Assembly (NCBI GenBank): GCA_951812745.1
Contig: OX638327.1
Coordinates: 1,165,914-1,229,913 of the forward strand
Direction: 5' to 3'
DNA: 64,000 bases
Source: an uncultured Nitrospirales bacterium
GTDB taxonomy: Bacteria > Nitrospirota > Nitrospiria > Nitrospirales > UBA8639
Below, in pieces: positions 13,337-50,320 of this stretch; the stretch's first letter is position 1; each line of letters opens with the position of its first letter. Both the position numbers and the translations under genes were made by a program. The notes below the pieces were generated by a model, which ran no database searches, was not told the origin of the DNA, and saw only the letters and a list, made by a program, of their open reading frames with translations.

Positions 13337-13352
13337 TCTGACCCGCTTCCCA

Positions 13353-17101: not shown

Positions 17102-17212
17102 CTCAAACGTTGTCAATCCCCAAGGCCTACGGGCCGTTTCAAAAACTTCACCGGCCGGTAGGCCCATGCTTTTCGACCACAGGAGTCATCTTACTCAACC
17201 GGACGTGGCCTC

Positions 17213-28806: not shown

Positions 28807-28861
28807 ATTTACGGCTCGTTGACCCCTCTGTAACGCCACCGTAACGAAAAGTTTTTAAACC
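28807..28861 (+). promoter_or_regulatory. Pho-box-like array + -10 (porin promoter)
   Basis: Hexamers ATTTAC/GTTGAC/TGTAAC/CGTAAC at 28807, 28818, 28829 and 28840 (11-bp phase), then 10 nt, then TAAACC. Confidence 0.55.
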
Positions 28862-28939
28862 TGCTCCAGCACAAATTTGCATCAAACGCAAGTCGATATT
28901 TCCATGCCATTGACCATTTACGAGAGGGGAGATTTCTTT

Positions 28940-30406
28940 ATGAGCGTTCAGCGAGGGATCCTTGGAATGATGGTACTGTTTGTCATGATGACCCTCATGC
29001 CGTCGCCGGCAACGGCAATCGAGGGGGACTTACTCCTGGAGATTTTGCTGGAAAAAGGCATCATCACAAAGGATGAGTTGACTCAGATCAAAGCCGAAGA
29101 AAAGAAGCGGGAGGCCGCAAGAGCCGCGACGCACTCCAGGAAGAAAACCCAGATCGAAGCCGGCTACGGACAGGAGACGCCGGCAGTCGCGAAAACGTCG
29201 GAACCATCCAAAAAGAAGGATTCCGGGGTCAAAGTCGGCTTCGGGAAAAAAGGATTTACCCTGGCCACCACGGATGGATTGTTCAAAACCAAAATCCAAT
29301 GGCGGTTTCAAGGCCGGTACACCTTTCCCGAACGGGGAGATCCACGCAATGCAGGCGCGTTCAGTGACAACGAAGAGAGTACGTTCGAGCTTCGGCGGGT
29401 GCGGATGAAAGTCGGAGGGCACGGGTACAAACCCTGGATCAAATATTACTTCGAAGTGGATTGGCAACCCATGCGTACCGATGATCGAGATCAAGCACGT
29501 GCCTCAACCCGTCTGATTGATTGGCGCATCATGCTGGAAAAATACAAGTGGCTCAAATTGCGGATCGGGCAATGGAAAATCAACTACAGCAGAGAGCGGG
29601 TCGACTCCTCCGGGAAACAGACCATGGTGGAACGGTCCATTATGAACCGGGTGTTTACCATCGACCGGCAAATGGGGATGATGTTGTACGGCCGCGTGAA
29701 TCCCGGCACGATCCTTGATGCGAACTATTACCTCGGGGTTTTTTCCGGCGCCGGTCGTGGTGTGAACAACGACGACGACAACATGATGTATATGGGGCGC
29801 ATCCAATGGAACGTCTTCGGCCGTGAACTCAAATGGCGGCAAAGCGACGTCAAGTTCCACAAGAAACCCACGGCCAGTATCTCATACGGCGCATATACGA
29901 ATAAGGGCAAATGTACGCGATGGTCGTCGGGCGGATGCGGAAGCCTCGGCTCTCTCAGCAGGGCCGGTGACAGTTTTTCGACTTCTGTCGCCGATGGCCG
30001 ATACCAGGTCAGCGGGATGCAGGTCGGGTCGGCCTTCAAGTACCGCGGGTTTGCCTGGCAGCATGAAACGCATTGGAAAAAAGTCAAGGATACTGAAGCA
30101 GCGGCTGGGTTGCAAAGAACGAATATGTTCGGGGGCTATTTCATGGCCGGCTATTTCCCGCACTATCTCATTTCGGCCGTTCCCAAGCCATTGGAAATCG
30201 CCTTCCGGTATTCACACGTCGATCCGAACGTGGATGCCGGCGGAGACCTCCGCCAGGAATTTACCACGGGCCTCAATTGGTTCTTTGCCGGGCACCGCAA
30301 CAAGCTGACGCTCGACGCCTCGCACCTGACACTTGAGCAACCAACTCCCAACTTGCCAGCGTGGACGGAACAACGCGTCCGTCTCCAGTGGGACGTGTCC
30401 TTCTGA
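28940..30406 (+). CDS. phosphate-selective porin O/P family outer-membrane protein
   Basis: Signal peptide MSVQRGILGMMVLFVMMTLMPSPATA, a coiled N-terminal segment, then a beta-barrel-like alternating pattern ending ...RVRLQWDVSF. Its context is the Pho regulon. Confidence 0.7.
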   Translation: MSVQRGILGMMVLFVMMTLMPSPATAIEGDLLLEILLEKGIITKDELTQIKAEEKKREAARAATHSRKKTQIEAGYGQETPAVAKTSEPSKKKDSGVKVGFGKKGFTLATTDGLFKTKIQWRFQGRYTFPERGDPRNAGAFSDNEESTFELRRVRMKVGGHGYKPWIKYYFEVDWQPMRTDDRDQARASTRLIDWRIMLEKYKWLKLRIGQWKINYSRERVDSSGKQTMVERSIMNRVFTIDRQMGMMLYGRVNPGTILDANYYLGVFSGAGRGVNNDDDNMMYMGRIQWNVFGRELKWRQSDVKFHKKPTASISYGAYTNKGKCTRWSSGGCGSLGSLSRAGDSFSTSVADGRYQVSGMQVGSAFKYRGFAWQHETHWKKVKDTEAAAGLQRTNMFGGYFMAGYFPHYLISAVPKPLEIAFRYSHVDPNVDAGGDLRQEFTTGLNWFFAGHRNKLTLDASHLTLEQPTPNLPAWTEQRVRLQWDVSF

Positions 30407-31918: not shown

Positions 31919-31973
31919 ATTTACTTGACCCTAACGTCACGGAAACCTTCTCTTTACATTGCGCGGATACGCT
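31919..31973 (+). promoter_or_regulatory. Pho-box-like array + -10 (CBS-psiE-arsC promoter)
   Basis: ATTTAC/CCTAAC/GGAAAC/CTTTAC at 31919, 31930, 31941 and 31952, then 10 nt, then TACGCT. The ATG is 29 nt downstream. Confidence 0.6.
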
Positions 31974-32385: not shown

Positions 32386-32432
32386 CGGTCAGGCATTCCT
32401 TGTCAACCAATTCCAGCTTAAGGTGTTCTCTT

Positions 32433-32915
32433 ATGTCTTTTCTGACACGCACGTTCTTTTCCGATATGACGACGATCTGGATGCACGGCACGAAAGTCGT
32501 GCTGAGTTTATTGATTCTGACGCTCCTGATGGCGCTGACCGGCGGAGTCGTGAAAACCTTTGCCGACCTGTATCTGCTGTTTTCCCAACCCTTGGAAGTG
32601 GTCTTTAGAACGATCATCGTCAATACCCTCCTGCTCCTTGCAATCGTCGAGGTGCTGAAAACGACCGTCACGTATTTTTCCGAAGGACGAGTGAAAGTGA
32701 CTTTTATCGTCGATACGATTCTGGTGGTCATGTTGACCGAAGTCATTTCACAATGGTTTAGAGACGCTTCGCTCGAACGATGGCTGACCCTTGGAGGCAT
32801 TCTGCTGGCGCTCGCCATTCTCCGGGTCGTCGCGGTCAGGTGGTCGCCGGCGAAATGCGATTCCGCGCCGGAGGGCTTGCCCACTCCGAACTCTCTCTCC
32901 ATATCGGGGACCTGA
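32433..32915 (+). CDS. psiE: phosphate-starvation-inducible protein PsiE family
   Basis: Four-TM protein with the ...LLLLAIVEVLKTTVTYF...TFIVDTILVVMLTEVI pattern of PsiE. ATG 32433 follows AAGGTG. Confidence 0.7.
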   Translation: MSFLTRTFFSDMTTIWMHGTKVVLSLLILTLLMALTGGVVKTFADLYLLFSQPLEVVFRTIIVNTLLLLAIVEVLKTTVTYFSEGRVKVTFIVDTILVVMLTEVISQWFRDASLERWLTLGGILLALAILRVVAVRWSPAKCDSAPEGLPTPNSLSISGT

Positions 32916-34083: not shown

Positions 34084-35649
34084 TCATTCCGCCGCGTCTG
34101 TCGAAAACCTCGGGTCCACCTGAACGGTGAAGGTGACCTCTCGCCCGAAGACTTTCCGGAACAGGTCTGCTCGCGATTGCGCGGTCCAGATTTCCAACTC
34201 CGAGTCGGCCAGAGCCTTCAACTCGATGTTCATTATTTTTCCGATGGTGACGTGGACGTCCCGGATGATGGAAAAGTGACTGCGATCCAAGCCATCCGCA
34301 ATGCGTAAAATCGCGCTCAGCGTCTCCAGCACCTTTCGCCTGGCAGGTGAAAGGAGTTTATACGGCAGGTGTTGGGGGCCAGGTAACGAGCGGCGATGAT
34401 AACGGGCCACGTTGGCGATCATCTCGATTTCATCGACCGTAAATCCGGCCAGATCGCTGTTCGTAATCAAATAGTAACTGTGCTTATGGTGTTGGCGTGG
34501 ATTAATGGCGTACCCCACGTCGTGGAGCAATGCGGCATATTCCAGACACTCGCGTTCCTCGTCAGCCATGCCATGCAGGGATTGCAGTTGATCAAACAGC
34601 GACAAGGCCAACGTCGCCACGTGACGGGAATGCGTCTCCGGGTAATGGCAGCGTCTGGCCAAGGCCACGACGTTCCGCAATCGGATATTTGGAATTTCCT
34701 GCTCGATCAGTAAGCCTTCCTGGTTCTTTTGGATGAAATCGTAGACCAACCCTTCACGCATGGCTTTGTCGCTGATCGTAGCTTCCTTATGCCCGATGGC
34801 TTCGAGAGTTTGGCGAATCACCGACGTCGCCGCCAGCAGCGTATCCACCCGTCGCGGGTCCAGACCCGGGATGCCGAGCCGCGTGTCCACGTCGCTCGTC
34901 GCGAGCCGTTGCTCGACGGCGCGAATTTCTTTCAGGGTAATGGTCGAGAGGTTAATCTGGGGGATGGGGGCACCGGTCCGTTCCAGATAAATGATTTCCG
35001 CCAGGTTCGAGGCCATGCCGGAAGAAATCACGACTCGATCAAACTCAGGCTGACGAAATCGCTCCAAGGCGGCTTCCAGTTCTTTGGCGATCATGTCGTG
35101 CATGGCCCGCAGTTTGGCCTTCGGAGGCGGCGCTTTGGTCAAGAACAGATCTTTCAGGCGAATGGCCCCGAGTTTGAGACTCTCGGCGTGTAGCAGACGC
35201 TTTCGATTCCCCGCGATGATTTCGACCGAGCCTCCGCCCACGTCCACCAGCAGAGTCGGTTGGTCCGTCAAATCCATGCTTTGGCGAACACCCAGGTAAA
35301 TGAGGCGGGCTTCTTCCTGACCCGTGATGACCTTGACGCGAACACCCGTGCTCTCGGACACTTCCTCGACAAATTGGCCGCTGTTGCGCGCTTCACGAAC
35401 CGCGCTGGTCGCCGCCATCAGAATGCGATCAAACCCTTTGTTTCGTGCCAGCGTCGTCAGGTTTTTCAGGACTTCAACGCCTCGCGCCCGCGCCTCCGCA
35501 GACAACCGTCGCTGGCGAAACGTCCCGTCACCCAGACGGGTCATGTCCTTGAACCGATCAAGAATCTTATAGGAGCCATCAGGTTCGGCTTCCGCCAACA
35601 CCATGTGAATGGAATTGGTCCCAATGTCTATCACGGCGATCTTCGACAT
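34084..35649 (-). CDS. ppx: exopolyphosphatase / pppGpp phosphohydrolase (Ppx/GppA) with HD domain
   Basis: IAVIDIGTNSIHMVLAE...LLVDVGGGSVEI...LLHDVGYAI. Confidence 0.9.
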   Translation of the reverse strand: MSKIAVIDIGTNSIHMVLAEAEPDGSYKILDRFKDMTRLGDGTFRQRRLSAEARARGVEVLKNLTTLARNKGFDRILMAATSAVREARNSGQFVEEVSESTGVRVKVITGQEEARLIYLGVRQSMDLTDQPTLLVDVGGGSVEIIAGNRKRLLHAESLKLGAIRLKDLFLTKAPPPKAKLRAMHDMIAKELEAALERFRQPEFDRVVISSGMASNLAEIIYLERTGAPIPQINLSTITLKEIRAVEQRLATSDVDTRLGIPGLDPRRVDTLLAATSVIRQTLEAIGHKEATISDKAMREGLVYDFIQKNQEGLLIEQEIPNIRLRNVVALARRCHYPETHSRHVATLALSLFDQLQSLHGMADEERECLEYAALLHDVGYAINPRQHHKHSYYLITNSDLAGFTVDEIEMIANVARYHRRSLPGPQHLPYKLLSPARRKVLETLSAILRIADGLDRSHFSIIRDVHVTIGKIMNIELKALADSELEIWTAQSRADLFRKVFGREVTFTVQVDPRFSTDAAE

Positions 35650-35813: not shown

Positions 35814-36599
35814 CTAAAAATGCAGTAAGGCAACCAATCGTTCGACCAGTTGGGGCGATCCGAACAGGACATCGATTTTGTGCTCCACCCGAGACGGACG
35901 GGTGACGAAGGTCCCGCCGGCCTCTTCAACCAGGACTTGGGTGGCAACGGCGTCCCAGGGATTGAGTGCCGGATCGAGCATGGCGCCGACTGATCCTTTG
36001 ATGACCAGCGTATGACCGAAACAATCGGTATAGCCTCGAAGATACGGACACGCGTTGGCCAGTTGCCGGAACATTTCTTCGCAGCCCGCACTCGTGAATT
36101 GGGCGATATCTCCCGTGGCAATGATGCTGGTCTCCAGCTCCGCTTCCCGGGAAACCGACACGGCCGTCCCGTTACAGGCACACCCCATGCCTCGAGCCGC
36201 ACTATACGTCATGTTCAGCATGGGCAAATGGATCACCCCGATGAGCGCCTTGCCGGCTTCCCTGTCCTCCAACGCCACGATCGTCCCAAACAAGGAGATC
36301 CGGTTCACGAAGGAGCGCGTGCCGTCGATGGGATCGATCAACCAGCGATAGCGCGTCTTGCTTCCTTGCCCTCCAAACTCTTCTCCCAACACGTCAAAGC
36401 CCACGGCGACCGGATCGCCCTGCAACACATTCCGAATCGCGGTTTCCGCCTCGCGGTCCGCAATGCTCACCGGAGAGCCGTCGTCTTTTCGTTCGACGTG
36501 AAGGGTGCGATCCGTAAAATAGTCGAGCAGCAGCCCGGCCGGCGTTTGCGCCGCGCGAATTGAAAGGGCCAGCAGGCGTTCTAGTTCCTCGGCATCCAT
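35814..36599 (-). CDS. inositol monophosphatase-family phosphatase
   Basis: ...VLGEEFGG...WLIDPIDGTRSFV...WDAVA. Start is either ATG 36599 or GTG 36629. Confidence 0.8.
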   Translation of the reverse strand: MDAEELERLLALSIRAAQTPAGLLLDYFTDRTLHVERKDDGSPVSIADREAETAIRNVLQGDPVAVGFDVLGEEFGGQGSKTRYRWLIDPIDGTRSFVNRISLFGTIVALEDREAGKALIGVIHLPMLNMTYSAARGMGCACNGTAVSVSREAELETSIIATGDIAQFTSAGCEEMFRQLANACPYLRGYTDCFGHTLVIKGSVGAMLDPALNPWDAVATQVLVEEAGGTFVTRPSRVEHKIDVLFGSPQLVERLVALLHF

Positions 36600-36662
36600 C
36601 AACTGTTCATGTTCCCCATTGGTTTGCACAATCGGTTTTCAGAAAACCCTGACACGTGACAA

Positions 36663-36729
36663 TTTAACACCGGGGCTGCGGCAATGTAACCCTCAGATAA
36701 CAAATCGCCCCGGGAAATCGCGTAAAAAT
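36663..36729 (+). promoter_or_regulatory. Pho-box-like array + -10 (promoter of the 814-aa/PSD/Lgt/TPR operon)
   Basis: In-phase hexamers TTTAAC (36663), ggctgc, TGTAAC (36685), GATAAC (36696), gccccg, then 10 nt, then TAAAAAT at 36723. Confidence 0.55.
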
Positions 36730-36792
36730 ACGTCCCAAAGAAGCACGCGCCCGTCCTGCCGAACAGGCTAAACGGGCGACGAAGAGGCAACG

Positions 36793-39237
36793 ATGCTGAT
36801 AAAAACCGAATCGCCATCCTCAACCGTTCAAACGTTTTCTTCTGATCACCAACAAAGGGTCGAACGTCTGGCCGACGTACTCGGTGCCGGCGGGCGCTCA
36901 TCAAATTTGAACCTCTGCAGTCTCCCCTTCGCACCGGACGACGTGACAGCGGGCTCGGAAAACGAATACCAAACCGCGGTATTGGGCACGACGAAACACG
37001 TCGACCTACCCATTACCCTGCAAACGTCCAATTTTTACAAAAACCTGGTCAAACAAACCTGGCGCAAAGGGGCTCCCTTCGCGAAAGCGGGGGGCCATTC
37101 CAAACGCAGCAAATCCGAACTCGAGGCTTATTTGGCTCACGAATCCAACGACGTCTGGGAAAACAGTTGGGTCCGGTTTCCGAGGCGGACGCTCGGTCCG
37201 TTTGCCAGACAGGTGCTTCAACATGATCTCCTGGCCGACAAAAAAGACCTTGCCGGCCCGCCGAGACGAGACATCAGGAAGGTGGTGTTTTATCAGGATG
37301 GGGAAGAGTGGGTCCGCGTTCCAATCAGTTACCTCTCGCGCCTCGCATTGGCCGACGTCATAAGCGGCAAGGCCCCTTCCGCCATTCGTCGCATCGGCGA
37401 ACGCCTCATGGATCACTTTCTGAATGACAACACGTCTCCGGAAACGTGCAGCTTCTATATCATGAACCTGCATCAGGATACCAAGATGGGACGTACAGTC
37501 GGGAAGGAAGCGAGCAAACGGTTCTTTCTCAGTCATTTACTGACCACGTACGCCAACCGGAAGTTCGCGTTGCTCGAAACGGGCCAACGGGCCCTGATGT
37601 ATTTTGCGCCGCATCCGCCAATCCGTCAAAAACGTCTCAACGGTCTCATTTCCGACAACTTTTATCGGGAACTCTTCATGAACCCCTGTTTGTCGGGATG
37701 GGACAACGGGCCAGACAAGCACGAGTATATGCGACTCTGCCATGAGGTGCTGTCACGAAGTCACCAGCACGTGATTGGAAAGCTCAAGAATGCCGGAATC
37801 ATTACACGCAATCTGGTCGTCCCGACCAGCCCCTCCAACATCAGCCTGGCAAATAACGGCACCCACGTCAGCTTGGGAAGCCGAAAATTGACACAGCTTT
37901 CCCGAACCATGCCCGACGAATTTACACCCCGCGATGAAAAATATTTCGGGGATCTCGTGACGAAAGTCGCCGAGCATTTCCTTCCGTTATTCGTCGGAAC
38001 CTACAGCGCCGCTCCGTATCGTTTGGACTTCTGGGACTTTCATCCGGAAAACGTGCTGGGCTTTCTCCCCCATGAATTAGATCACCAATTTCTGCGTTTA
38101 CTCTGGCAGCGGTGGAAACGAAAGGCCGGCTTGCGGTTCTTCGGGAAACCCGTCACGCCCCTGGGACCGGTGTGGTTGGACAAGGCGTTGAGCTACGGGT
38201 TTGGGATGCGAGGGGATTATATCCCCGATTTCCGGCTCATCGATTATCTGGTCGTCCTGCCGAGCACGGAAGAATGTCCTGCCCTCGACGGCACGCTTGG
38301 GAACGACCTTCGGCTCAAACGAGACCTGGCCGAACAGGGCATCTATGACGAACGAATGTCCTTTTATCAGCTTTATAAACTCCGAACGTTTTCCACAATG
38401 GGATTTTCCGGATTCGAGGGCCGGTACTATAGTTTGTTTGAAAGCCTCCTCGACGACATGGGAGAAGCCGCCAGTCTTCAGGCTTTGGTCACCGCGTTGG
38501 CGTTCAAATATATCTTCCAATTTGATGTGCAGCCTTCCGACATTTCCGACGACCCCGCCACGGAAAGTGAACGGCGACAGATCTTTTTCGGGGCGGCCGT
38601 CAATCTCCCCACCTTCTACGTCCGTGCCGACACGTCGAACTGGTTTCTGAAACGCATCCTGGCCCGAACGCCGAAAGTGCGGCTGAGTCGACGATTTTCC
38701 TCATATTATCGGGTCCATTATCGGGAATATGGCCGAACCCTCTTGACGATTCTCCGGGAGGACGGCCCGGACCTCATTGAAGCCTTTCAACTGCACGACG
38801 TCATGGACAAACTCAAAGACCGGCTCGAAAACCCTGATGATTGCTCGACGTTCGGGAAGCTGACGAAAGGCATACTGCAGGAAAGTGGGGCAACCTCCCC
38901 CTTCAGTCTTTCAGGAGAGGAGTACAACACAGCCGCTGAAACCTACTATCGTCACACGCTTCGACAACGACACCTCAGCGAAGCGATTCAGGAATTGGAA
39001 GTTGATTGCGCCGCCCTGGATGACTGTACGGGCTCAACCCTTCACACGAGCAAAGCCCTCATGCAAACCATCCTGGGGCCTTCCACGTCCGCGGGATCCT
39101 TTCTGGAACGCACAAAGCCCGTACTGATCGACGAAACGATCTCCCTCCCTCAACTCACGAAATTGATTTATCTGGTGTTGATCACCTTACTGGTCGATGA
39201 GCAACGTGCCGGCGATCATGAATCCGAAATTGATTAG
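36793..39237 (+). CDS. large conserved-looking protein of unknown function (814 aa)
   Basis: GAAGAGG lies 6 nt before the ATG. The ORF is uninterrupted with normal composition. I see no P-loop, TM helix or signal peptide. Possible metal/ligand-type motif SLANNGTHVSLGS. I recognise no family. Confidence 0.7.
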   Translation: MLIKTESPSSTVQTFSSDHQQRVERLADVLGAGGRSSNLNLCSLPFAPDDVTAGSENEYQTAVLGTTKHVDLPITLQTSNFYKNLVKQTWRKGAPFAKAGGHSKRSKSELEAYLAHESNDVWENSWVRFPRRTLGPFARQVLQHDLLADKKDLAGPPRRDIRKVVFYQDGEEWVRVPISYLSRLALADVISGKAPSAIRRIGERLMDHFLNDNTSPETCSFYIMNLHQDTKMGRTVGKEASKRFFLSHLLTTYANRKFALLETGQRALMYFAPHPPIRQKRLNGLISDNFYRELFMNPCLSGWDNGPDKHEYMRLCHEVLSRSHQHVIGKLKNAGIITRNLVVPTSPSNISLANNGTHVSLGSRKLTQLSRTMPDEFTPRDEKYFGDLVTKVAEHFLPLFVGTYSAAPYRLDFWDFHPENVLGFLPHELDHQFLRLLWQRWKRKAGLRFFGKPVTPLGPVWLDKALSYGFGMRGDYIPDFRLIDYLVVLPSTEECPALDGTLGNDLRLKRDLAEQGIYDERMSFYQLYKLRTFSTMGFSGFEGRYYSLFESLLDDMGEAASLQALVTALAFKYIFQFDVQPSDISDDPATESERRQIFFGAAVNLPTFYVRADTSNWFLKRILARTPKVRLSRRFSSYYRVHYREYGRTLLTILREDGPDLIEAFQLHDVMDKLKDRLENPDDCSTFGKLTKGILQESGATSPFSLSGEEYNTAAETYYRHTLRQRHLSEAIQELEVDCAALDDCTGSTLHTSKALMQTILGPSTSAGSFLERTKPVLIDETISLPQLTKLIYLVLITLLVDEQRAGDHESEID

Positions 39238-40273
39238 TTCAGGCCTGCATCAATATATCGATCGCGAAACCGCCAGTGTGCAAAGCGAGCAACTGTACGG
39301 GGACCGGGTCGTCAACTATCTCTACTCGGCCGTCAGGGAAAAGGCTCCGACCCTGTTTAAGGCGCTTACCTCATCGTCAATCTCTTATCTGGTCGGCCTT
39401 TGGAATTATGACGTCACCTTCGGCCCTGCGTCATCAGGGGTCTCGTCGTTCTGTCGAAAGTTGGGCATCAATCTCTCGGAATGCGTGGACAGTCCTGCGA
39501 CGTTCGATTCTCCACGTAAAGTGTTTGAACGCAAGATCCGATATTGGGAACGTCGCCCCATGGACTCCGCGGCTTCCATTCTCGTTTCGCCTGCGGATTC
39601 GAAGGTGCTTCTCGGGTCCTTGCAGACCAGTTCTCAACTGTTCTTGAAGGGGAAATTTTTCGACGTGTATGAATTGTTGGGTCAAGAAAAGGCGTTGTGG
39701 CATCGGACGTTTCAAGACGGAGATTTTGCCATCTTTCGTCTGACACCCGACGAATATCATTACAACCACTCACCGGTTTCCGGTGTGGTCGTGGATTATT
39801 ATGAAGTGGACGGCACCTATCATAGCTGCAACCCGGGTCCGATTATTTCGGTGGTCACACCTTATTCGAAAAATAAGCGGGTGGTCACCGTGATCGATAC
39901 GGACGTTCCGGGCGGGACACGTGCCGGGCTCGTCGCCATGATTGAAATCGTAGCCCTGATGATCGGCGCGATCGATCAATGCTACAGCGAACACTTTTAC
40001 GAGAACCCGCAGAAAATGGAAAAAGGTCTTTTCGTCAAAAAAGGGCAGCCGAAAAGCCTGTATCGGCCCGGGAGTTCAACCGACGTGCTTCTGTTGCAAC
40101 GCGGACGGGTCGACTTTTCTCAGGACTTGCGCCTGAACCAGCGACGGCGAGACGCCATCAGTCGATATTCATTGGGTTTTGGACGTCCGGCCGTCGAGAC
40201 GGCGGTCAAAGTTCGCTCGACCATCGGACAAGCCCTGCCCTCCATGCGCGATATGGAGACTCATGTGTCATGA
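39197..40273 (+). CDS. phosphatidylserine decarboxylase-family (pyruvoyl) enzyme, long divergent form
   Basis: FRLTPDEYHYNHSPVSG (PSD core) and YRPGSSTDVLL (G-S self-cleavage site). Overlaps the upstream ORF end. The start is uncertain (39197 or 39218). Confidence 0.7.
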   Translation: MSNVPAIMNPKLISSGLHQYIDRETASVQSEQLYGDRVVNYLYSAVREKAPTLFKALTSSSISYLVGLWNYDVTFGPASSGVSSFCRKLGINLSECVDSPATFDSPRKVFERKIRYWERRPMDSAASILVSPADSKVLLGSLQTSSQLFLKGKFFDVYELLGQEKALWHRTFQDGDFAIFRLTPDEYHYNHSPVSGVVVDYYEVDGTYHSCNPGPIISVVTPYSKNKRVVTVIDTDVPGGTRAGLVAMIEIVALMIGAIDQCYSEHFYENPQKMEKGLFVKKGQPKSLYRPGSSTDVLLLQRGRVDFSQDLRLNQRRRDAISRYSLGFGRPAVETAVKVRSTIGQALPSMRDMETHVS

Positions 40274-41361
40274 GCATTTCTGATTTGCCGCACGTCTCAA
40301 TAGACAGTCCCGGGGGATTATCTTTCCTGTTCTTGGGCATCGTCAGCCTTGCCGTGTTTTTTCTTTTTCGATGGGCCTTTGCCATCCTCCCCAGGGAACA
40401 GTGGCAAATCATGGCGGTGCTCCCGCGACACCGGGCCGACTCGAACCGATGGCACGGGCTGAACCTGACCTACTATGGATTCATCACGGCCAGTGCCGTC
40501 ACGCTGGCCGTCGGCAATGCGTTGTTTCTCCTGGGAACGATTCAGATCCCGCTTGGGGTCTCCCTGCTGTTCGTCCTCTCTCTCATGAGCCTGGCGGTTC
40601 CTGCTTCCAAAATCATCGCCAAAGTCGTCGAAAAAAAAGCGTTTACCTTCACGATCGGGGGAGCGTCCTTCACGGGCCTCGTCATGGCGCCCGTGATGGC
40701 TGTCGCGATCAATGGGATGCATCACCAGCCTGACGTGCTGCCGGTTCTTCCGGCACTCTCCGCACTGATGATCTCCTTCGCCCTTGGCGAAGGCATCGGA
40801 AGACTGGCCTGCATCAGCTATGGCTGCTGTTACGGGAAGCCGCTTTCCGCCTGTTCGCCGATCATGCAAGCGTTGTTCAAGACCCTGCACTTTCGCTTTA
40901 CAGGCGCCATCAAGAAAATTGCGTATGCCGGCAACCTCGAATCCGTTCCAGTGGTTCCCATTCAGGCCATCACGGCCATCGTCTCCACGGCGGGCTACAT
41001 CATCGGTATGGGATTGTTCCTGACGGGACGCTTTGCAGCAAGTCTTTTGGTCTCCTTGATGATCACGCAAGCCTGGCGTGCCGTCTCGGAAACCTGGCGG
41101 GCGGATTACCGGGGGACAGGATCGATTTCCATGTACCAGGTGATGTCCGTCGTCGGAATAGGTTACATGATCGCCGTCATGATGGTTGTGCCCTCTTTCC
41201 CGCTTGCTTTTCCAAACCTTCTCGTGGGGCTTCACTCTCTGTGGAACCCGACGGTGCTGCTCTTTCTTCAAAGCGCCTGGATCGGCATCTTCCTTTTTAT
41301 GGGAAGAAGCCGCATGACGGGCTCCGTGCTGTCCTTCTTTGTTCACAAAGAACATCTGTGA
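40270..41361 (+). CDS. Lgt-family (prolipoprotein diacylglyceryl transferase-like) polytopic membrane protein
   Basis: GRLACISYGCCYGKP and VPVVPIQAITAI resemble the Lgt GR.GN/C...G and P.Q..E motifs. It has about 8 TM segments. The ATG overlaps the upstream TGA (ATGA). Confidence 0.6.
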   Translation: MSISDLPHVSIDSPGGLSFLFLGIVSLAVFFLFRWAFAILPREQWQIMAVLPRHRADSNRWHGLNLTYYGFITASAVTLAVGNALFLLGTIQIPLGVSLLFVLSLMSLAVPASKIIAKVVEKKAFTFTIGGASFTGLVMAPVMAVAINGMHHQPDVLPVLPALSALMISFALGEGIGRLACISYGCCYGKPLSACSPIMQALFKTLHFRFTGAIKKIAYAGNLESVPVVPIQAITAIVSTAGYIIGMGLFLTGRFAASLLVSLMITQAWRAVSETWRADYRGTGSISMYQVMSVVGIGYMIAVMMVVPSFPLAFPNLLVGLHSLWNPTVLLFLQSAWIGIFLFMGRSRMTGSVLSFFVHKEHL

Positions 41362-42089
41362 GACACCCCGCGTTTCCGGGCACCTGTCTTCTCTGTCTCC
41401 TGCTCATCTTTTCGTGTCATCTCCCGTCGTGGAGTCAAAAGTTTTCCATTCCGGAAGGGTATCCCGAGTCCCTTCGCCAGCAACGAGACGACTTCACCGC
41501 AGCCTTGATCGAGGATCTCAAGAATCCTCAACTCTGGAAGCTGTTGTCGCACGCGTACCTGAACATGGCAGATGATCTGTTCACCGACACATCAGAAAAA
41601 ATTGAAGCGTATGACAAAGGACTGAAAGCCGCCACCCAAGCCATGACGCTTCACCCGGATGATGCCGAAACGCATTTCCTCTACGCCGCGAACCTGGGGA
41701 GCGCCACGCAATTGCGAGGCATCACGTCCGGGGCCGTCAATCTCTCGGACATCATAAAACACGTAGACCGTGCCATTGAACTCGACCCGCACCATGCCCC
41801 GTCGTTACAGATGAAGGGAGGCTTAATGGCCGAATTGCCCTGGTATCTCGGCGGCAACGCGAAACTGGCCAAAGACTATCTTCGTCGGGCCATCGAGGCG
41901 GACGGCAAGTTTACCAACGCTCGGATCATCCTGGCCAAGTTGCTCATCAAAGAAGGAGAGCTTGAGGAGGCCAAATCTCAACTCCTCGCCGTGATTCAGG
42001 CCCGAAACCCGCATTACCCCTATACATGGGAAAAACGATTTCGGCCCGAAGCGCAACGGCTCCTGGATGAGCTTCAAAATCGCCAGTAA
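41358..42089 (+). CDS. TPR-like lipoprotein
   Basis: The GTG overlaps the upstream stop (GTGA). VRHPAFPGTCLLCLLLIFSC is lipobox-like, followed by helical TPR-like repeats. Confidence 0.6.
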   Translation: MRHPAFPGTCLLCLLLIFSCHLPSWSQKFSIPEGYPESLRQQRDDFTAALIEDLKNPQLWKLLSHAYLNMADDLFTDTSEKIEAYDKGLKAATQAMTLHPDDAETHFLYAANLGSATQLRGITSGAVNLSDIIKHVDRAIELDPHHAPSLQMKGGLMAELPWYLGGNAKLAKDYLRRAIEADGKFTNARIILAKLLIKEGELEEAKSQLLAVIQARNPHYPYTWEKRFRPEAQRLLDELQNRQ

Positions 42090-42172: not shown

Positions 42173-43621
42173 ATGAACTGCGTTGTACGGCAAACGCTGG
42201 AGCGGGAAGTCAAGCTCAAGACGGGGCACACGTTTCGCCTGCCCCATTTTCCGGGTGAGCCGCTTCCTCCTCGGCTGTTGACCTCCACCTACTTCGATAC
42301 CGTTGATTTCAGGCTGGCCCGGCTTGGGGTCACACTCAGTCGCAGGACCGAACAGAAACACGTCTTATGGCAACTGAAACTTCCGAGACCGCCAGCCCGG
42401 TTGGACGTGGAGATGGCTTCCGGTTGCTCGACCCCGCCGGCAGCGCTGGAGGAACTCCTGTTCGGCCTGTTACGACGTGAACCATTGACGGCCATTGCGA
42501 AACTCCAGATACGTCGTGCCGGCATCAGGATTCAACCTCTTGACAGACCCATCGCCGACGTGGTCATCGACCGCGTCAGGATTTTCAGCGCCCGTCGAGT
42601 GGTGGGTCATCTGAGCGAGATTGAAGTAGCACTCCGCTCAGGCAAGGAAAAAGAACTCGCTGCAATCGTGACCGCCCTTCGTGAAGCCGGCGCATCCGAC
42701 GGAGATTCCCGCCCGAAAGTGTTTCAAGCCTTAAACCTGAATTTTTCGCATCCCTGTCTTCCCGAATCGGCGCCCTTCCCGGAACGCCTCAAATCCATCC
42801 TGCAAAAACAACTCCGGGACATCCTGCTGCACGACCCCGGAACGCGGTTCGGCCAAGACCCGGAAGAACTCCACCAGATGCGCGTCGGGATCAGAAGGTT
42901 TCGAGCACTCCTGCGGGCGTCGAGAGTCTTACTGGAGCCGGAATGGTATGCGTCCCTGCAAGAGGAACTCCGGTGGCTGGGCGCGATGCTGGGAACCGTT
43001 CGGGACCAGGACGTCCTGCTCGAGCAACTGTATATGGAAGCCCGCGTCCTTCCCCCAGCCGAACGAAAAATGTTCGAACGATTGTTGGCCACGTTTGAAA
43101 CCCATCGTTCCCAAGCCCGCCTGCAACTACTCGACGCCCTTCGCAGCGATCGCTATCTGGATCTCTTGGGCCGCCTCGAACGAGCCGCCCAAACCCCGGC
43201 CTTGCGTGACGCGCCCGAGAGTTCTCTGATGCACCTGGCTGCTCAAGAATTCAAAGATCTGGTCAAAGCCGGCAAGCGTGGGACCGCCGACCCCTCGGAT
43301 CACGAATTGCATCAACTGAGAATTCGCACCAAACGCACGCGATATGCCGCCGAACTCGCCCTCGAAACCATGGGAAAATCCGCCATACGGTTCGTCCGCC
43401 AAACCAAACGAAACCAGGATATCCTGGGTGACCACCAGAACGCCGTCGTCACGGAGGAACGACTCCGGCAATTGCTCCTGACGACCCGAGGCGTGAAGAC
43501 CGCGTTTGCCATCGGACAGATCGTCGAGCGACTGCGGGCTCGCCGGCGCCGGACGAAAGTGATTTTTCCCCGAGAATGGGCGAAACTCAAAAAGCGAGGC
43601 CGCGAGGTCTTTGCCCTATGA
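42173..43621 (+). CDS. CYTH (triphosphate tunnel) + CHAD domain protein
   Basis: N-terminal EREVKL...YFDT (CYTH); C-terminal HQMRVGIRRFRALLR...HELHQLRIRTKRTRYAAE (CHAD histidine/arginine helices). Confidence 0.85.
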   Translation: MNCVVRQTLEREVKLKTGHTFRLPHFPGEPLPPRLLTSTYFDTVDFRLARLGVTLSRRTEQKHVLWQLKLPRPPARLDVEMASGCSTPPAALEELLFGLLRREPLTAIAKLQIRRAGIRIQPLDRPIADVVIDRVRIFSARRVVGHLSEIEVALRSGKEKELAAIVTALREAGASDGDSRPKVFQALNLNFSHPCLPESAPFPERLKSILQKQLRDILLHDPGTRFGQDPEELHQMRVGIRRFRALLRASRVLLEPEWYASLQEELRWLGAMLGTVRDQDVLLEQLYMEARVLPPAERKMFERLLATFETHRSQARLQLLDALRSDRYLDLLGRLERAAQTPALRDAPESSLMHLAAQEFKDLVKAGKRGTADPSDHELHQLRIRTKRTRYAAELALETMGKSAIRFVRQTKRNQDILGDHQNAVVTEERLRQLLLTTRGVKTAFAIGQIVERLRARRRRTKVIFPREWAKLKKRGREVFAL

Positions 43622-43721: not shown

Positions 43722-45929
43722 ATGAGTGAACACGGACACGTCAGGCGTGCATGGCGCAATGAAGCCGAGGGCACAACCATGGCTATCGGTTCCGCTGAGA
43801 CCAACGCCCCGGCCGATTCTTTGACGTCCGACCTTGACGATCCCAAGCTGTATTTGAATCGTGAGCTCAGTTGGCTCCAATTCAACGCCCGAGTCCTCGA
43901 GGAAGCAGAAGATCACGGCAACCCGCTGTTGGAACGGGTGAAGTTTCTGTCGATCTTTTCGAGCAACCTGGATGAGTTTTTCATGATTCGGATATCGGGA
44001 TTGAGAGAACAATTGTCCGGTGGAGTGCGAGAGGGCCCGCCGGACGGCATGACCACCTCGGAACAGTTAGCGGCCGTTCGGCAGGAAGTCCTGTGTCAAC
44101 TGGCCCGTTTTTCGGACTGCTGGCGGAACGATATCCTGCCAAAGCTCAACGCCCAGGACGTGTACGTGCTTCGCTACCATCAACTGCAACCGAAACAACA
44201 ACACTTACTCCGCGGGTATTTTTCCAAAGAAATCTTTCCGGCGCTCACTCCCTTGGCCTTCGATCCGTCCCATCCCTTCCCTCATATTTCCAACTTGAGT
44301 TTGAATCTGGCCGTCGTGGGGCAGGATCCCGAGCGAGGCGAATGTTTCGCCCGCGTGAAAATTCCCAATATTTTTCCGCGTCTCGTCCGCATCCCCAACG
44401 AAGACATGGTCAACGAGGCGGACCAATTCGGCTTGCCCGACTCGGGAGCCGACAACTTCGTCTGGATCGAAGACGTGGTCGCCGCCAATCTCGACCTCCT
44501 GTTTCCGGGGATCACCATTCTCGCCGCCTACCTCTTTCGGGTGACGCGCGACGCCGATTTCGAAATCGAGGAAGACGAGGCAGCCGACCTGTTGGCTTCG
44601 ATTGAAGAACAGGTGGACAACCGTCACTTCGGCTCGGTGATCCGGCTGGAAATCGACCAGGCGACGCCGGATCACATCCGGGACATTCTGATCAGGAATC
44701 TCTCGTTGGCTCCGTACCAGGTCTATACGCAGGATCTTCCGCTCGGTCTGTCCAGCCTTATGGAGTTGACGCGCATCGATCTTTCGGAGTTGAAATATCC
44801 GCCGTTCGTTCCGGAGATCCCGGATTCCCTCAACAAGAAGGAAAGCCTGTTCTCGGTCATCCGGCGTGGCGACGTCGTGCTGTACCATCCCTACGACAGT
44901 TTCACTCCGGTCGTCGATTTCGTGCGCGAGGCGGCAAGCGATCCCCACGTGCTGGCCATCAAACAGACCCTCTATCGAGTGGGAGCCAATTCCCCGATCG
45001 TGGAGGCGTTAATGGAAGCGAGAGTGAACGGGAAACAGGTCGCGGTCCTGCTGGAGCTGAAGGCGCGCTTCGATGAAGAAAACAACATCGAATGGGCCCG
45101 GAAACTGGAGGATGAAGGCATCCACGTGGTCTATGGGGTCTTTGGGCTGAAAACCCACGCCAAGATGTGCCTGGTCATCCGGCGCGACGAGGACAGCATC
45201 CGGCGGTACGTCCACCTGGGCACGGGTAATTACAATCCGGTGACAAGCCGGATGTATACCGACCTGAGTTTCTTGACCTGCGACCCGGCCACGGGCGCGG
45301 ACGTGGCCGATCTCTTCAACTCGTTAACCGGCTACTCCCGGAAGAATTTCTATGCCAAACTGCTCGTGGCGCCCCAATTGATGCGGGAACAAATTCTGGA
45401 GCGAATCGAGCGGGAGATTCAGCGGCACAAGGAAAAGGGAGACGGATACCTGGCGTTCAAGATGAACGCCCTCGTGGACACACAATGCATTCAAGCGCTC
45501 TATCGGGCATCCCAAGCCGGCGTCAAAATCGACCTCCAGATTCGAGGGGTCTGCGGGCTTCGTCCGGGAATTCCCGGAATCAGTGAAACCATCGCCGTGA
45601 CCTCGGTCGTCGGACGATTCCTGGAACACGCACGGCTCTATTATTTCCGCAATGGCGGGCAGGAAGAACTGTTTCTCGGCAGCGCCGACCTCATGCCCCG
45701 CAACCTGGATCGGCGCGTGGAACTCCTGTTCCCGATCGAGTCCCCGCACCTTCGCAAAATCCTTGTCGACGATCTCCTGCAAGTGGCGCTTCACGACAAC
45801 GTCAAGACCCGCCAATTGCTGTCGAACGGGCAATATACCCGTCTCCAGCTCGTACCCGAGCATGCCCCCCTCAGCTCTCAAGAATGGTTTCTGGAAAATT
45901 GGAAAGGCCGCGGCGCGGGCGCCTTGTAG
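43722..45929 (+). CDS. ppk: polyphosphate kinase 1
   Basis: YLNRELSWLQFNARVLEEA...FMIRISGL...two PLD-like HKD regions (GLKTHAKMCLV; RFLEHARLYYF). Start is 43722 or 43779. Confidence 0.95.
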   Translation: MSEHGHVRRAWRNEAEGTTMAIGSAETNAPADSLTSDLDDPKLYLNRELSWLQFNARVLEEAEDHGNPLLERVKFLSIFSSNLDEFFMIRISGLREQLSGGVREGPPDGMTTSEQLAAVRQEVLCQLARFSDCWRNDILPKLNAQDVYVLRYHQLQPKQQHLLRGYFSKEIFPALTPLAFDPSHPFPHISNLSLNLAVVGQDPERGECFARVKIPNIFPRLVRIPNEDMVNEADQFGLPDSGADNFVWIEDVVAANLDLLFPGITILAAYLFRVTRDADFEIEEDEAADLLASIEEQVDNRHFGSVIRLEIDQATPDHIRDILIRNLSLAPYQVYTQDLPLGLSSLMELTRIDLSELKYPPFVPEIPDSLNKKESLFSVIRRGDVVLYHPYDSFTPVVDFVREAASDPHVLAIKQTLYRVGANSPIVEALMEARVNGKQVAVLLELKARFDEENNIEWARKLEDEGIHVVYGVFGLKTHAKMCLVIRRDEDSIRRYVHLGTGNYNPVTSRMYTDLSFLTCDPATGADVADLFNSLTGYSRKNFYAKLLVAPQLMREQILERIEREIQRHKEKGDGYLAFKMNALVDTQCIQALYRASQAGVKIDLQIRGVCGLRPGIPGISETIAVTSVVGRFLEHARLYYFRNGGQEELFLGSADLMPRNLDRRVELLFPIESPHLRKILVDDLLQVALHDNVKTRQLLSNGQYTRLQLVPEHAPLSSQEWFLENWKGRGAGAL

Positions 45930-46201: not shown

Positions 46202-46462
46202 TTATGCAGCTTCCTTGCGGGCCATATAGAGTTCCCATTTCGCTTGCATTGTAACCCAGAATTCGGCACTGATACCGAAGACTTCTTCAAGCTGAAGGGC
46301 AAAATCCGCAGAAATTCCTCTCCTGTTATTACAAATTTCAGAGATCTTTCTTTCTGCACAGCCAATTTTTTTAGCTAACCATTTTTGGGTCAACCCTCTT
46401 TCTTCCAGCACCATTGTTTTTAAAAAATCGCCTGGCGAATATCTGATTTTCAGTTCAACCAT
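46202..46462 (-). CDS. higA: HigA-family HTH antitoxin
   Basis: SPGDFLKTMVLEERGLTQKWLAKKIGCAERKISEICNNRRGISADFALQLEEVFGISAEFW. Confidence 0.85.
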   Translation of the reverse strand: MVELKIRYSPGDFLKTMVLEERGLTQKWLAKKIGCAERKISEICNNRRGISADFALQLEEVFGISAEFWVTMQAKWELYMARKEAA

Positions 46463-46496
46463 AAGCCGGTCCCTTTTTTGTTTATTTCATTGAAAG

Positions 46497-46799
46497 TTAA
46501 TCATGGTAATCTTTAATCTCAACGTTGACAAACTCACCTTGCTGATACTTAAAAATAATACACCAAGGCTTTTCTATCGTGATTGACCAAAAATCTTTCA
46601 TGTTCCCCTTTAGCTTGTGTAATTTTAAAGTGGGGGGTTCGCAAATTCTTCTTAAATCATCAAAATTCGATACATCACTCAACGCTTGCAGAAGCAAAAC
46701 GGCTCTCTTGTTGATTCGGTCGTGAAACTTCCTATAAGCACCTTTGTTAACAATATCTTTGACAATTTTACCTTTAACCGAGTTTATCATTGTTTCCAT
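46497..46799 (-). CDS. higB: HigB-family (RelE/ParE-fold) toxin
   Basis: ...LHKLKGNMKDFWSITIEKPWCIIFKYQQGEFVNVEIKDYH. Markedly AT-rich. Confidence 0.85.
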   Translation of the reverse strand: METMINSVKGKIVKDIVNKGAYRKFHDRINKRAVLLLQALSDVSNFDDLRRICEPPTLKLHKLKGNMKDFWSITIEKPWCIIFKYQQGEFVNVEIKDYHD

Positions 46800-50311: not shown

Positions 50312-50320
50312 GGAATCCCT

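Follow-up and report, generated by a model that had tools for sequence, protein, structure and literature searches.

Several described systems replace membrane phospholipids with phosphorus-free lipids under Pho control, namely PlcP/Agt for glycolipids, BtaAB for a betaine lipid, and OlsBA/OlsF for an ornithine lipid. A sulfur-containing lipid was discovered in 2024. Under phosphate limitation, and only then, the desulfobacterotal species D. alkenivorans produces BACys ("N-butyramide cysteine glycerol") lipids, which together with glucuronosyl lipids almost wholly replace PE, PG, and CL (Ding et al. 2024, PMC11181052). The BACys structure is tentative and comes from mass spectrometry only, with a headgroup ion at m/z 205.064 (C7H13O3N2S+) (PMC11181052). 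No genes assigned to BACys were found in a search of the literature. A second point of reference is Lgt (PF01790), in which the thiol of a lipobox protein attacks the diacylglyceryl C3 of phosphatidylglycerol (PG) and glycerol phosphate is released. The active site of Lgt faces the periplasm, and in the E. coli enzyme, for which a structure is available, the PG-activating catalytic pair R143/R239 and E243 are mutation-intolerant and, like the signature residue G154, described as essential; H103, the histidine of the HGGL motif, is likewise essential and has been proposed as a peptide-binding site (PMC4728403).

The window analyzed here, a 64,000-nucleotide stretch of DNA from a Nitrospirales bacterium, contains four translationally coupled plus-strand genes (36793–42089) that lie within a phosphate gene island and downstream of a phased-hexamer Pho-box-like site. 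ORF1 (814 aa, 36793–39237) ends with a TAG stop at 39235–39237 that is overlapped by ORF2 (358 aa, 39197–40273), which starts with the ATG at 39197 or an alternative ATG at 39218. ORF2 and ORF3 (363 aa, 40270–41361) share an overlapping start and stop, ATGA at 40270–40273, as do ORF3 and ORF4 (243 aa, 41358–42089), with GTGA at 41358–41361. Pfam assigns the genes on both sides. Divergent from the operon on the minus strand are an IMPase-family gene (35814–36629) and ppx (34084–35649), and downstream of ORF4 on the plus strand are CYTH-CHAD (42173–43621) and ppk1 (43722–45929). A terminator scan found no intrinsic terminator in the interval between ORF4 and CHAD. A first-pass annotation of the window had described four tightly coupled same-strand genes between ppx/IMPase and CYTH-CHAD/ppk1, and the coordinates, strand, junctions, and flanking genes were all verified.

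The Pho-box-like array (36664–36702, plus strand) consists of the hexamers TTAACA (36664), GTAACC (36686), and ATAACA (36697), set in an 11-nt register in which the slot at 36675 is mismatched. The phased hexamers that precede pstS and phoB in this window served to train a weight matrix. Apart from the training sites, no other site on either strand of the window reaches the score of the ORF1 site (21.9, best three of four), nor does any of 20 shuffled sequences. The next two best sites precede genes for a phosphate-selective porin O/P and a PsiE-family protein, which independently validates the matrix. The array is followed by a -10-like element, GTAAAAAT (36722–36729, plus strand), and the hexamers as well as the -10 are kept in four orthologous Nitrospirales loci, in which the -10 reads GTA(A/G/C)AAAT. 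In a sigma-70 scan, no full -35/-10 promoter was found directly upstream of ORF1; a -10 without a -35 consensus is expected of an activator-dependent promoter. One sigma-70 consensus match, at 36493–36520, falls within the IMPase gene. Phased Pho-box-like repeats take the place of the -35 element and resemble the repeats found at pstS and phoB of this genome. The architecture that had been noted at first reading is borne out by matrix score, shuffling, and orthologue conservation. Beyond the Nitrospirales, a distant lineage of Desulfobacterota has one phased hexamer type upstream of both ORF1 and pstS, and in 14 of 45 loci ORF1 is preceded by phased arrays, as compared to 0.9% of background windows. 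From these patterns we infer that the operon is under PhoB-type control and is expressed in response to phosphate starvation.

Homologs of the operon were compared across 53 loci from Nitrospirota, Desulfobacterota, Acidobacteriota, and SAR324. ORF1, the PSD-family gene (ORF2), and the Lgt-family gene (ORF3) occur in identical order in 44 of these, which are all the loci with sufficient contig reach except for one decayed copy (L040). Counted separately, same-strand and same-order partners of ORF1 are PSD in 48 of 53 loci and LGT in 45. Desulfobacterota are the main home of the triad, and many of its carriers are anaerobes. The identical arrangement is found in two isolates, Desulfococcus multivorans and Geobacter pickeringii, and ORF1 homologs occur in Desulfonema ishimotonii, Desulfococcus, Desulfosarcina ovata, and Desulfobacterium sp. 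N47. The unit that is conserved comprises three genes, ORF1-PSD-LGT. The operon had been proposed as a four-gene system whose members should co-occur in a fixed order; this holds across phyla for three of them, and the fourth, ORF4, is confined to Nitrospirota. Apparent ORF1-PSD fusions in two loci (L028 and L041) were rejected as Rosetta-stone evidence when BLAST identified their N-terminal parts as long alternative-frame ORFs in high-GC DNA. An apparent LGT-PhoH fusion in a third locus (L017) had no match in the same BLAST and was set aside by inference on the same grounds. A literature search found no description of this gene set.

Genes for phosphate uptake and storage are recurrent neighbors of the triad. 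In about 13 of 20 lineages it lies within 8 kb of pstSCAB, phoU, phoBR, phoH, ppx, ppk, or CHAD genes, and its neighbors include PhoB/PhoR-like regulators and PbfA. In Desulforhabdus sp. TSK the gene order is pstS-pstC-pstA-ORF1-PSD-LGT. The association with pst, pho, and polyphosphate genes seen in the window is thus recurrent, but flanking polyphosphate genes are not universal: they occur in close Nitrospirales, where the ppx/IMPase flank recurs, in Geobacter pickeringii, where ppx and CHAD adjoin the triad, and in one Desulfosarcinaceae locus. Lipid-related genes also recur, including Aas-like and PlsC-like acyltransferases and, in 10 loci and G. pickeringii, a GT4 glycosyltransferase fusion, a candidate enzyme for the co-induced glycolipid and possibly a counterpart of the Agt type. 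Other recurrent neighbors (BrkB-like, DUF2062, thioesterase, DksA-like, and SprT-like/DUF2786) gave no link to cysteine or glutamate metabolism.

ORF2 and ORF3 matched the two Pfam families that had been expected of them, each well below the level of the named enzyme. ORF2 matches PF02666 with an E value of 8.6e-35 (120.6 bits, cut-off 22), and its best score against the NCBIfam PSD equivalogs is 138 bits, as compared to a cut-off of 371. Alignment of 41 family members to E. coli Psd revealed that equivalents of D90, H144/H147, and the G253-S254 cleavage site are kept, as are the motifs PAD, YHYNHxP, and RPGSS. Two motifs reported earlier for this protein, FRLTPDEYHYNHSP and PGSS, were found and are conserved across the family, which also has a conserved N-terminal extension of ~100 aa. 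Like Psd, ORF2 retains the D-H-S residues for autoprocessing, and its sequence identifies it as a probable self-processing pyruvoyl proenzyme of the PSD family and not a phosphatidylserine decarboxylase proper. A canonical pssA and psd pair is present elsewhere in the window (11898–13363), and ORF2 is therefore considered a PSD paralogue, distinct from the housekeeping enzyme of PE formation, as was first suggested.

ORF3 is a polytopic membrane protein with multiple hydrophobic segments and extra C-terminal transmembrane segments. It matches PF01790 with an E value of 3.4e-10 (40.1 bits, cut-off 24.9) over profile positions 9–239 of 240, and scores 24 bits against NCBIfam Lgt equivalogs with a cut-off of 334. 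The motifs GRLACISYGCCYGKP and PIQA, both reported earlier, are conserved across the family. As in Lgt, the G-R-x-x-x-x-x-x-x-x-x-x-G signature is present, and all 35 members aligned to E. coli Lgt retain the equivalents of its residues R143, R239, E243, G154, and G104. In the same 35 members N146 and E151 are both replaced by Cys (motif GRLACiSfGCCYG). The histidine of HGGL (H103) is V, T, I, or A in this family, Y26 is W, and Y235 is also replaced. Replacement of H103, N146, and Y26, together with a score below equivalog level, is the reason that ORF3 is not classified as Lgt proper, and the loss of these residues, one of them essential, means that a different chemistry is possible. We propose that ORF3 is a diradylglyceryl transferase that acts on a non-protein thiol. 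The chemistry would be that of Lgt, with thiol attack on PG and release of glycerol phosphate, and the acceptor would be a small molecule or lipid headgroup, unlike the lipobox protein used by Lgt.

ORF1 is always the first gene of the cassette and is the largest and most conserved of the triad. The 814-aa protein was originally called an orphan, which did not hold: about 3000 homologs with 50–60% identity occur in multiple phyla. No Pfam or NCBIfam match was found for ORF1, nor for 30 members of its ~810-aa family even at E = 10, and the glutamate-cysteine ligase (GCL) families PF04262, PF04107, and PF03074 gave no profile match in the same 30 members. A PDB profile search was empty, and when the family profile was compared with E. 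coli GshA by hhalign nothing was found (probability of about 0.06%). An exhaustive profile search of 1.84 billion representatives recovered 889 clusters, comprising only the family and its fragments with no remote relatives; the best 150 were all ORF1 family.

Predicted structures were compared as the first-pass annotation had suggested. Two independent AlphaFold models of the family (pLDDT of 79 and 89) were searched with Foldseek, and across the two models the only matches with a probability above 0.4 were GshF (0.98), GshA, yeast GCL, PafA, YbdK, and Dop. For the better model, 10 of the top 15 PDB matches belong to the GCL superfamily, with probabilities of 0.44–0.98, TM-scores of 0.25–0.45, and a best E value of 0.025; E values for both models are all above 0.01. 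The invariant motifs G-x-E56-x-E58, G-T-H358, and E542-x-R544, candidate metal ligands, fall on predicted strands in the order of E27/E29, H150, and E328/R330 in E. coli GshA, a correspondence matched by motif and order alone. The candidate resemblance to the superfamily (GshA, the N-domain of GshF, eukaryotic GCL, YbdK/GCS2, and PafA/Dop) consists of a first strand that carries G-x-E-x-E, a central one with G-x-H, and a later one with E-x-R. ORF1 differs in matching no Pfam or PDB profile at the sequence level, in exceeding these proteins in length by ~300 aa, in a large insertion that separates the first strand from the His strand, and in a C-terminal helical domain that ends in a single hydrophobic helix. 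The description of ORF1 as a large soluble protein of unknown type gives way to a weakly assigned GCL/YbdK/PafA-like (carboxylate-amine ligase) fold, and ORF1 is the founding member of a highly conserved new family. On the basis of the models, we propose that it is an ATP-dependent ligase that forms a gamma-glutamyl-type amide.

ORF4 is an exported TPR protein and probably a lipoprotein (LLIFSC), with a signal peptide and Cys conserved in most orthologues. It matches TPR Pfam families; matches to TAtT (23.3 bits, cut-off 26.5) and BstC are sub-threshold. It was found in ten loci, all Nitrospirota, and for this reason is placed outside the core system. ORF4 is an accessory specific to this phylum, and it may partner the triad by handling the new lipid in the periplasm.

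The chemistries proposed for the three core proteins can be combined into one pathway. ORF3 would move a diradylglyceryl group from PG to the thiol of cysteine or of a cysteine-containing dipeptide, forming a thioether and freeing glycerol phosphate from which phosphate could be salvaged. ORF1 would use ATP to join glutamate to the cysteine-derived amine through a gamma-glutamyl-type amide. ORF2 would act, as Psd does, on a lipid-tethered alpha-amino-acid moiety, here a gamma-glutamyl or cysteinyl headgroup and not phosphatidylserine, and its pyruvoyl group would strip the alpha-carboxyl adjoining the free amine. Whatever the order, these three steps would yield a C7H13N2O3S headgroup S-linked to glycerol, either 4-aminobutanoyl-cysteine or its isomer gamma-glutamyl-cysteamine. 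The Lgt active site is periplasmic and an ATP-dependent ligase is necessarily cytoplasmic, which counts against the scheme as regards the order and topology of its steps.

The predicted headgroup has the composition reported for BACys. The calculated mass of C7H13N2O3S+ is 205.0641, as compared to the reported 205.064, and corresponds to Glu + Cys - H2O - CO2 - H (gamma-Glu-Cys minus CO2 and the thiol H). The two systems are complementary, in that BACys is a lipid without known genes and the triad a set of genes without a known lipid. Desulfatibacillum alkenivorans was not among the best 120 matches of each of three homolog searches (Nitrospira, Desulfococcaceae-like, and Desulfosarcinaceae seeds) from a family of about 3000. 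The best explanation, which we consider to have an even chance of being correct, is that the Pho-controlled triad builds a phosphorus-free glycerolipid containing sulfur and nitrogen from PG via Lgt-like transfer, gamma-glutamyl-type ligation, and pyruvoyl decarboxylation. The proposed route shares the logic of PlcP/Agt, BtaAB, and OlsBA/OlsF, none of which use these three enzyme families, and would differ from them in swapping the PG headgroup directly, with no free diacylglycerol intermediate, and in its thioether-linked headgroup. Synteny, Pho neighbors, and Pho-box-like arrays are in agreement with the earlier general reading of the operon as a distinct route of headgroup remodeling with phosphate salvage during phosphate starvation; its gene number and product required revision. 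A diacylglyceryl-amine or a modified lipoprotein had been suggested as the product, and the GCL-like fold of ORF1 shifts the likely product to a thioether-linked aminolipid derived from cysteine and glutamate, which fits better.

Other readings of the triad are less probable. If the Lgt-like protein moved diacylglyceryl from a phospholipid to serine or another acceptor with a hydroxyl or amino group and the PSD-like enzyme then decarboxylated it, a phosphorus-free diacylglyceryl-ethanolamine-type lipid would result and ORF1 would be an accessory with a non-catalytic or regulatory role. A serine headgroup is the usual substrate of the PSD family, ORF2 retains its catalytic residues and ORF3 its PG-activating arginines, and the Pho context speaks for this route just as it does for a cysteine lipid. 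We nevertheless regard this route as unlikely, given that it leaves unexplained the largest and most conserved protein, which is always encoded first and combines invariant, putative ligase-type metal motifs with a GCL-like predicted fold. Every Lgt reaction known so far depends on a thiol as nucleophile, and no such O-linked lipid was found in the literature for the carrier taxa. It is more doubtful still that ORF3 is a second Lgt, one that lipidates prolipoproteins during phosphate starvation from a non-standard donor made or recycled by ORF1 and ORF2. Membership of the Lgt family at Pfam level is consistent with this, and in Nitrospirota a candidate substrate is at hand in the probable lipoprotein ORF4, whose gene overlaps the ORF3 stop codon. 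The triad persists in every locus outside Nitrospirota without ORF4, however, and the proposed peptide-site histidine, N146, and Y26 are lost in all 35 ORF3 members; a GCL-fold ligase would also be left without a role.

ORF1 and ORF2 might instead make a soluble compound of the decarboxylated gamma-glutamyl-cysteine type for redox or metal handling during starvation, with the Lgt-like protein as an exporter or unrelated partner, or ORF1 might work as an amidase of the Dop type, freeing an amino acid instead of ligating one. Soluble GCLs and the deamidase Dop belong to the fold superfamily, and PSD-family enzymes that act on free amino acids exist (PsiD). We give this only a slim chance in view of the strict three-gene synteny with a membrane enzyme that keeps its PG-activating residues, the recurrent lipid-related or Pho neighbors (GT4 fusion and acyltransferases), and the hydrophobic helix at the C terminus of ORF1. 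A thioether lipid remains the preferred product, and the triad most likely swaps the phosphate headgroup of membrane lipids for a cysteine-based phosphorus-free one.

The triad may be the missing gene set for the sulfur-containing lipid described in 2024. In the fullest form of this proposal, to which we assign slightly less than an even chance, an Lgt-family enzyme was recruited from protein lipidation to headgroup exchange, converting PG directly to a thioether cysteine lipid that is tailored by a GCL-fold ligase of a hitherto unrecognized family and a PSD paralogue. This would be the BACys pathway, and as a Pho-controlled means of sparing phosphorus it would be widespread, occurring in sulfate reducers, syntrophs, Geobacter, anammox bacteria, SAR324, Nitrospina, and Nitrospira. 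The hypothesis is directly testable by expression of three genes in E. coli. If correct, it would supply the genes for a recently discovered class of phosphorus-free membrane lipids, which now has none, give the Lgt family its first non-protein substrate, and establish as a new family some 3000 proteins that have no Pfam model. It would also constitute a fourth enzymatic route of lipid remodeling under phosphate starvation, in which phosphorus is traded for sulfur and nitrogen. Organisms that carry the triad have central roles in nitrification and in anoxic sediments, groundwater, and oxygen-minimum zones, and the triad genes could therefore be used as markers of phosphorus stress and, if the proposal holds, could provide a source assignment for sulfur-containing aminolipids in environmental lipidomes.

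The operon comprises four genes on the forward strand: ORF1 (36793–39237; 814 aa), ORF2 (39197–40273; 358 aa; PF02666, E 8.6e-35), ORF3 (40270–41361; 363 aa; PF01790, 40.1 bits against a cut-off of 24.9), and ORF4 (41358–42089; 243 aa), which matches TPR families in Pfam. PF02666 and PF01790 are the families that the first-pass annotation had expected for a PSD-like decarboxylase and an Lgt-like membrane protein, and the couplings it described are exact in the sequence: the ORF2 start (ATG at 39197, or 39218) lies ahead of the ORF1 stop (TAG, 39235–39237), followed by ATGA at 40270–40273 and GTGA at 41358–41361. Pfam searches agree with its naming of the flanking genes (ppx, an IMPase-family gene, CYTH-CHAD, and ppk1), and the canonical pssA-psd pair it placed elsewhere in the window is present (11898–13363). 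The Nitrospira sp. bin75 contig MPMZ01000035.1 matches the window, with ORF1 100% identical and the other genes 87–97% identical.

A single phosphate island extends from ~28.8 kb to ~56.4 kb and contains a porin, PsiE, LMW-PTP, a SixA-like gene, ppx, the IMPase-family gene, the operon, CHAD, ppk1, phoU-pstBACS, and phoRB. Between ppk1 and phoU is an inserted toxin-antitoxin pair (46202–46799, reverse strand), made up of a HigB-like toxin and an HTH antitoxin. The two Pst permeases (genes at 48677–52615, reverse strand) are of unusual length, 544 and 764 aa, with large N-terminal extensions and the BPD_transp_1 domain confined to the C-terminal part of both proteins. The phoR-pstS intergenic region (54085–54167) holds two copies and a degenerate third of a G/C-rich palindrome, CCCCCTGAYAAGGGGG, for which 0.13 copies are expected by chance. 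A similar palindrome occurs upstream of the ORF1 promoter in a related locus (L002, about 7750–7810); the element is probably REP-like or a terminator.

Relatives of ORF1 are encoded at 53 genomic loci, identified by scanning a genome collection with 8-mer patterns derived from the Nitrospira sequence of ORF1. Using tblastn over these loci, a PSD-like gene was found after ORF1 in 48 and an Lgt-like gene in 45; wherever present, they share the strand of ORF1 and keep this order. Loci lacking either gene are on contigs that end too early, with the sole exception of L040, and small insertions within the cassette occur at L045 and L046. The loci belong to Nitrospirota, many orders of Desulfobacterota, Syntrophorhabdia, Acidobacteriota, and SAR324, and the arrangement was confirmed by gene calls in two isolates. 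Named ORF1 homologs among the matches listed include those of Geobacter pickeringii, Desulfococcus, Desulfonema ishimotonii, Desulfosarcina ovata, a Nitrospinae MAG, and the anammox bacterium "Ca. Wunengus". The four-gene system originally proposed is therefore reduced to a triad: the co-occurrence and order of ORF1, PSD, and LGT held at every locus on a long enough contig apart from L040, and ORF4 is limited to loci of Nitrospirota. At L040 (Nitrospirales OZ244060.1, about 8000–10500) the cassette has decayed naturally, with ORF1 cut to 480 aa, the PSD gene missing, a 44-aa Lgt-like remnant, and a split TPR gene; the flanking ppx, IMPase, CHAD, ppk1, phoU, and pstB have stayed intact, and the locus retains a conserved Pho-box-like promoter.

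The 814-aa ORF1 product had been called an orphan, a description that its many homologs contradict. The family is very conserved and has ~3000 clusters at 90% identity (889 at 50%, many of them fragments), and no sequence match to ORF1 was found in Pfam, NCBIfam, or the PDB. ORF1 defines an undescribed protein family. AlphaFold models of the window protein (pLDDT 79, pTM 0.86) and a Desulfococcus homolog (pLDDT 89, pTM 0.92) gave the same picture in Foldseek. The only matches with meaningful probability were GshF, GshA (E. coli and Francisella), yeast GCL, PafA, Dop, and YbdK, a set that makes up 10 of the 15 top matches of the better model; the gamma-GCL domain of GshF (3ln7) had a probability of 0.98 and an E value of 0.025. 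Invariant G-S-E56-N-E58, G-T-H358, and E542-G-R544 fall on predicted strands, and their order matches that of G-L-E27-R-E29, G-V-H150, and E328-V-R330 in E. coli GshA. An hhalign comparison of ORF1 with E. coli GshA gave no match. Because of this empty alignment and the weak Foldseek E values, the GCL-like fold suggested by the models is graded as likely, not proven.

All 41 of 41 members of the ORF2 family keep the Asp and both His residues of E. coli Psd as well as its Gly-Ser site of self-cleavage, and ORF2 scores far under the PSD equivalog cut-offs. We read it as a putative active pyruvoyl decarboxylase whose substrate would differ from that of PSD. In the ORF3 family, R143, R239, E243, and G154 of E. 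coli Lgt are kept in 35 of 35 members; the first three, which do not tolerate mutation, serve to activate the phosphatidylglycerol C3-O bond (PMC4728403). The family lacks N146, Y26, and H103 of the HGGL motif, the proposed peptide-binding site of Lgt (PMC4728403), a pattern indicating that the donor-side machinery is retained and the acceptor side remodelled. There is also an invariant C-x4-CC (GRLACiSfGCCYG, residues about 185–200), and both N146 and E151 of Lgt are replaced by Cys in all 35 members. These cysteines suggest that the family has a feature lacking in canonical Lgt, be it a metal site, a disulfide bond, or a relay of thiols. ORF4 has a signal peptide and, in most orthologs, a lipobox-like Cys; its similarity to TatT and BstC, two TPR proteins that handle lipids, is sub-threshold.

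A weight matrix was built from the hexamers, spaced by 11 nt, upstream of pstS (TTAACA/GTAACC/TTTACG/GAAACA) and phoB (TTAACA/GAAACC/GAAACA) in the window, with scores taken from the best three of four slots. The site before ORF1 (TTAACA 36664, GTAACC 36686, ATAACA 36697; slot 36675 mismatched) scores 21.9, a value matched by no other non-training site on either strand of the window and in 0 of 20 shuffles, which bears out the hexamer architecture of pstS/phoB type claimed for this operon. Of the two next-best sites, both on the forward strand, one precedes a phosphate-selective porin O/P gene (array 28808–28846; gene 28877–30406) and the other lies ~440 nt upstream of a PsiE-family gene (array 31920–31958; gene 32400–32915), independent evidence that the matrix picks out promoters of Pho type. 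Four orthologous Nitrospirales loci keep all three hexamers together with the -10-like GTAAAAAT. A scan found no -35/-10 sigma-70 promoter directly upstream of ORF1, as fits an activator-dependent promoter; the single consensus match nearby (36493–36520) falls within the IMPase gene.

Flanking ORFs of the loci were clustered and scanned against Pfam and NCBIfam. Among the recurrent neighbors of the triad, PstS and PhoU score above the NCBIfam cut-off; the others are PstC/A, PstB, PIN-PhoH, PbfA (a phosphonate enzyme), HAD phosphatases, ppx, and ppk1, together with a response regulator and a kinase that match PhoB and PnpS/PhoR best and are directly upstream of or divergent from ORF1 at L024, L036, L038, and L046. 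Genes in Desulforhabdus sp. TSK are ordered pstS-pstC-pstA-ORF1-PSD-LGT on one strand. The G. pickeringii triad has a PstS-like gene on one side and ppx-CHAD with a SixA-like phosphatase on the other, the same company as in the window though in another phylum. The proposed proximity to pst/pho genes holds in about 13 of 20 ORF1 lineages, where a pst/pho/polyphosphate-type gene lies within 8 kb of the triad. One groundwater Desulfobacterota lineage has CTAACC-N5-TTAGCA-N5-CTAATA-N5-CTAACA before ORF1 and the same hexamer type before pstS. By a strict regular expression, 14 of 45 loci have phased arrays upstream of ORF1, versus 35 of 3992 background windows. From the Pho-gene neighbors and the recurrent arrays we infer, with good support, that PhoB regulates the triad.

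Other genes also adjoin the triad. Lipid-acylation genes, not pho genes, flank it in Desulfococcus multivorans (CP019913.2, locus L057); those at 14700–17591 and 4262–5230 encode an Aas-like protein (963 aa; PP-binding, AMP-binding, and acyltransferase) and a PlsC-type acyltransferase. A SprT-like/DUF2786/DUF7168 gene is divergent from ORF1 at L057, L010, L018, L021, and L041.

In phosphate-limited Desulfatibacillum alkenivorans, PE, PG, and cardiolipin give way almost completely to glucuronosyl glycerolipids and a new class of sulfur-containing aminolipids, the N-butyramide cysteine glycerol lipids or BACys (Ding et al. 2024, PMC11181052). BACys, whose structure is tentative, yield a headgroup ion of m/z 205.064 (C7H13O3N2S+) and do not occur under phosphate-sufficient conditions (PMC11181052). 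Neither that paper nor the other literature searched proposes genes for BACys. The triad could provide thiol S-diradylglyceryl transfer, gamma-glutamyl-type amide ligation, and alpha-decarboxylation next to a free amine, which on cysteine and glutamate would give Glu + Cys - H2O - CO2, S-linked to glycerol. The predicted headgroup cation, C7H13N2O3S, has a calculated mass of 205.0641. Decarboxylation of the gamma-glutamyl alpha-carboxyl would produce 4-aminobutanoyl-cysteine, which fits the authors' "butyramide + cysteine" reading; action on S-diacylglyceryl-cysteine, a close analog of phosphatidylserine, would produce the isomer gamma-glutamyl-cysteamine. Headgroup exchange would free glycerol phosphate for salvage. 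Topology is a weak point of this scheme: an ATP-dependent ligase is cytoplasmic, while the Lgt active site is periplasmic (PMC4728403). Either soluble precursors would be made inside and then exported, or a lipid intermediate would flip, or the Lgt-like protein would be differently oriented. D. alkenivorans was not among the best 120 matches of any of three homolog searches.

An 800–900 aa protein with a C-terminal GT4 glycosyltransferase adjoins the triad in 10 loci (L011, L014, L015, L021, L029, L031, L036, L051, L052, and L028) and in G. pickeringii (L059:727-3138). Its N-terminal region has only sub-threshold PHP and PHP_C matches, and its frequent neighbors are DUF2062 and a ~430-aa radical SAM protein. 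As a candidate phosphoesterase-glycosyltransferase, it may make the glycolipid co-induced with BACys.

The O/N-linked diacylglyceryl-amine route suggested in the first-pass annotation gives ORF1, the most conserved gene, no role. Were ORF3 a starvation-specific lipoprotein Lgt, its family would hardly have lost the HGGL histidine, and the absence of ORF4 outside Nitrospirota conflicts with the same reading. Neither a soluble thiol-metabolite pathway nor a Dop-like amidase role for ORF1 accounts for the strictly syntenic membrane enzyme and its retained PG-activating residues. We consider it highly probable that the triad is a Pho-linked membrane-lipid remodelling cassette; whether its product is specifically a thioether aminolipid derived from Cys and Glu is an even call.

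Pho-controlled phospholipid replacement is already known from PlcP/Agt, BtaAB, and OlsBA/OlsF, a logic that the triad would share. To our knowledge, none of these employs an Lgt-, PSD-, or GCL-type enzyme, and we know of no Lgt-family member with a non-protein acceptor. What would be new is the enzymology of the triad for phospholipid replacement, the biological logic being established. If the BACys link is true, the significance of the triad would be high.
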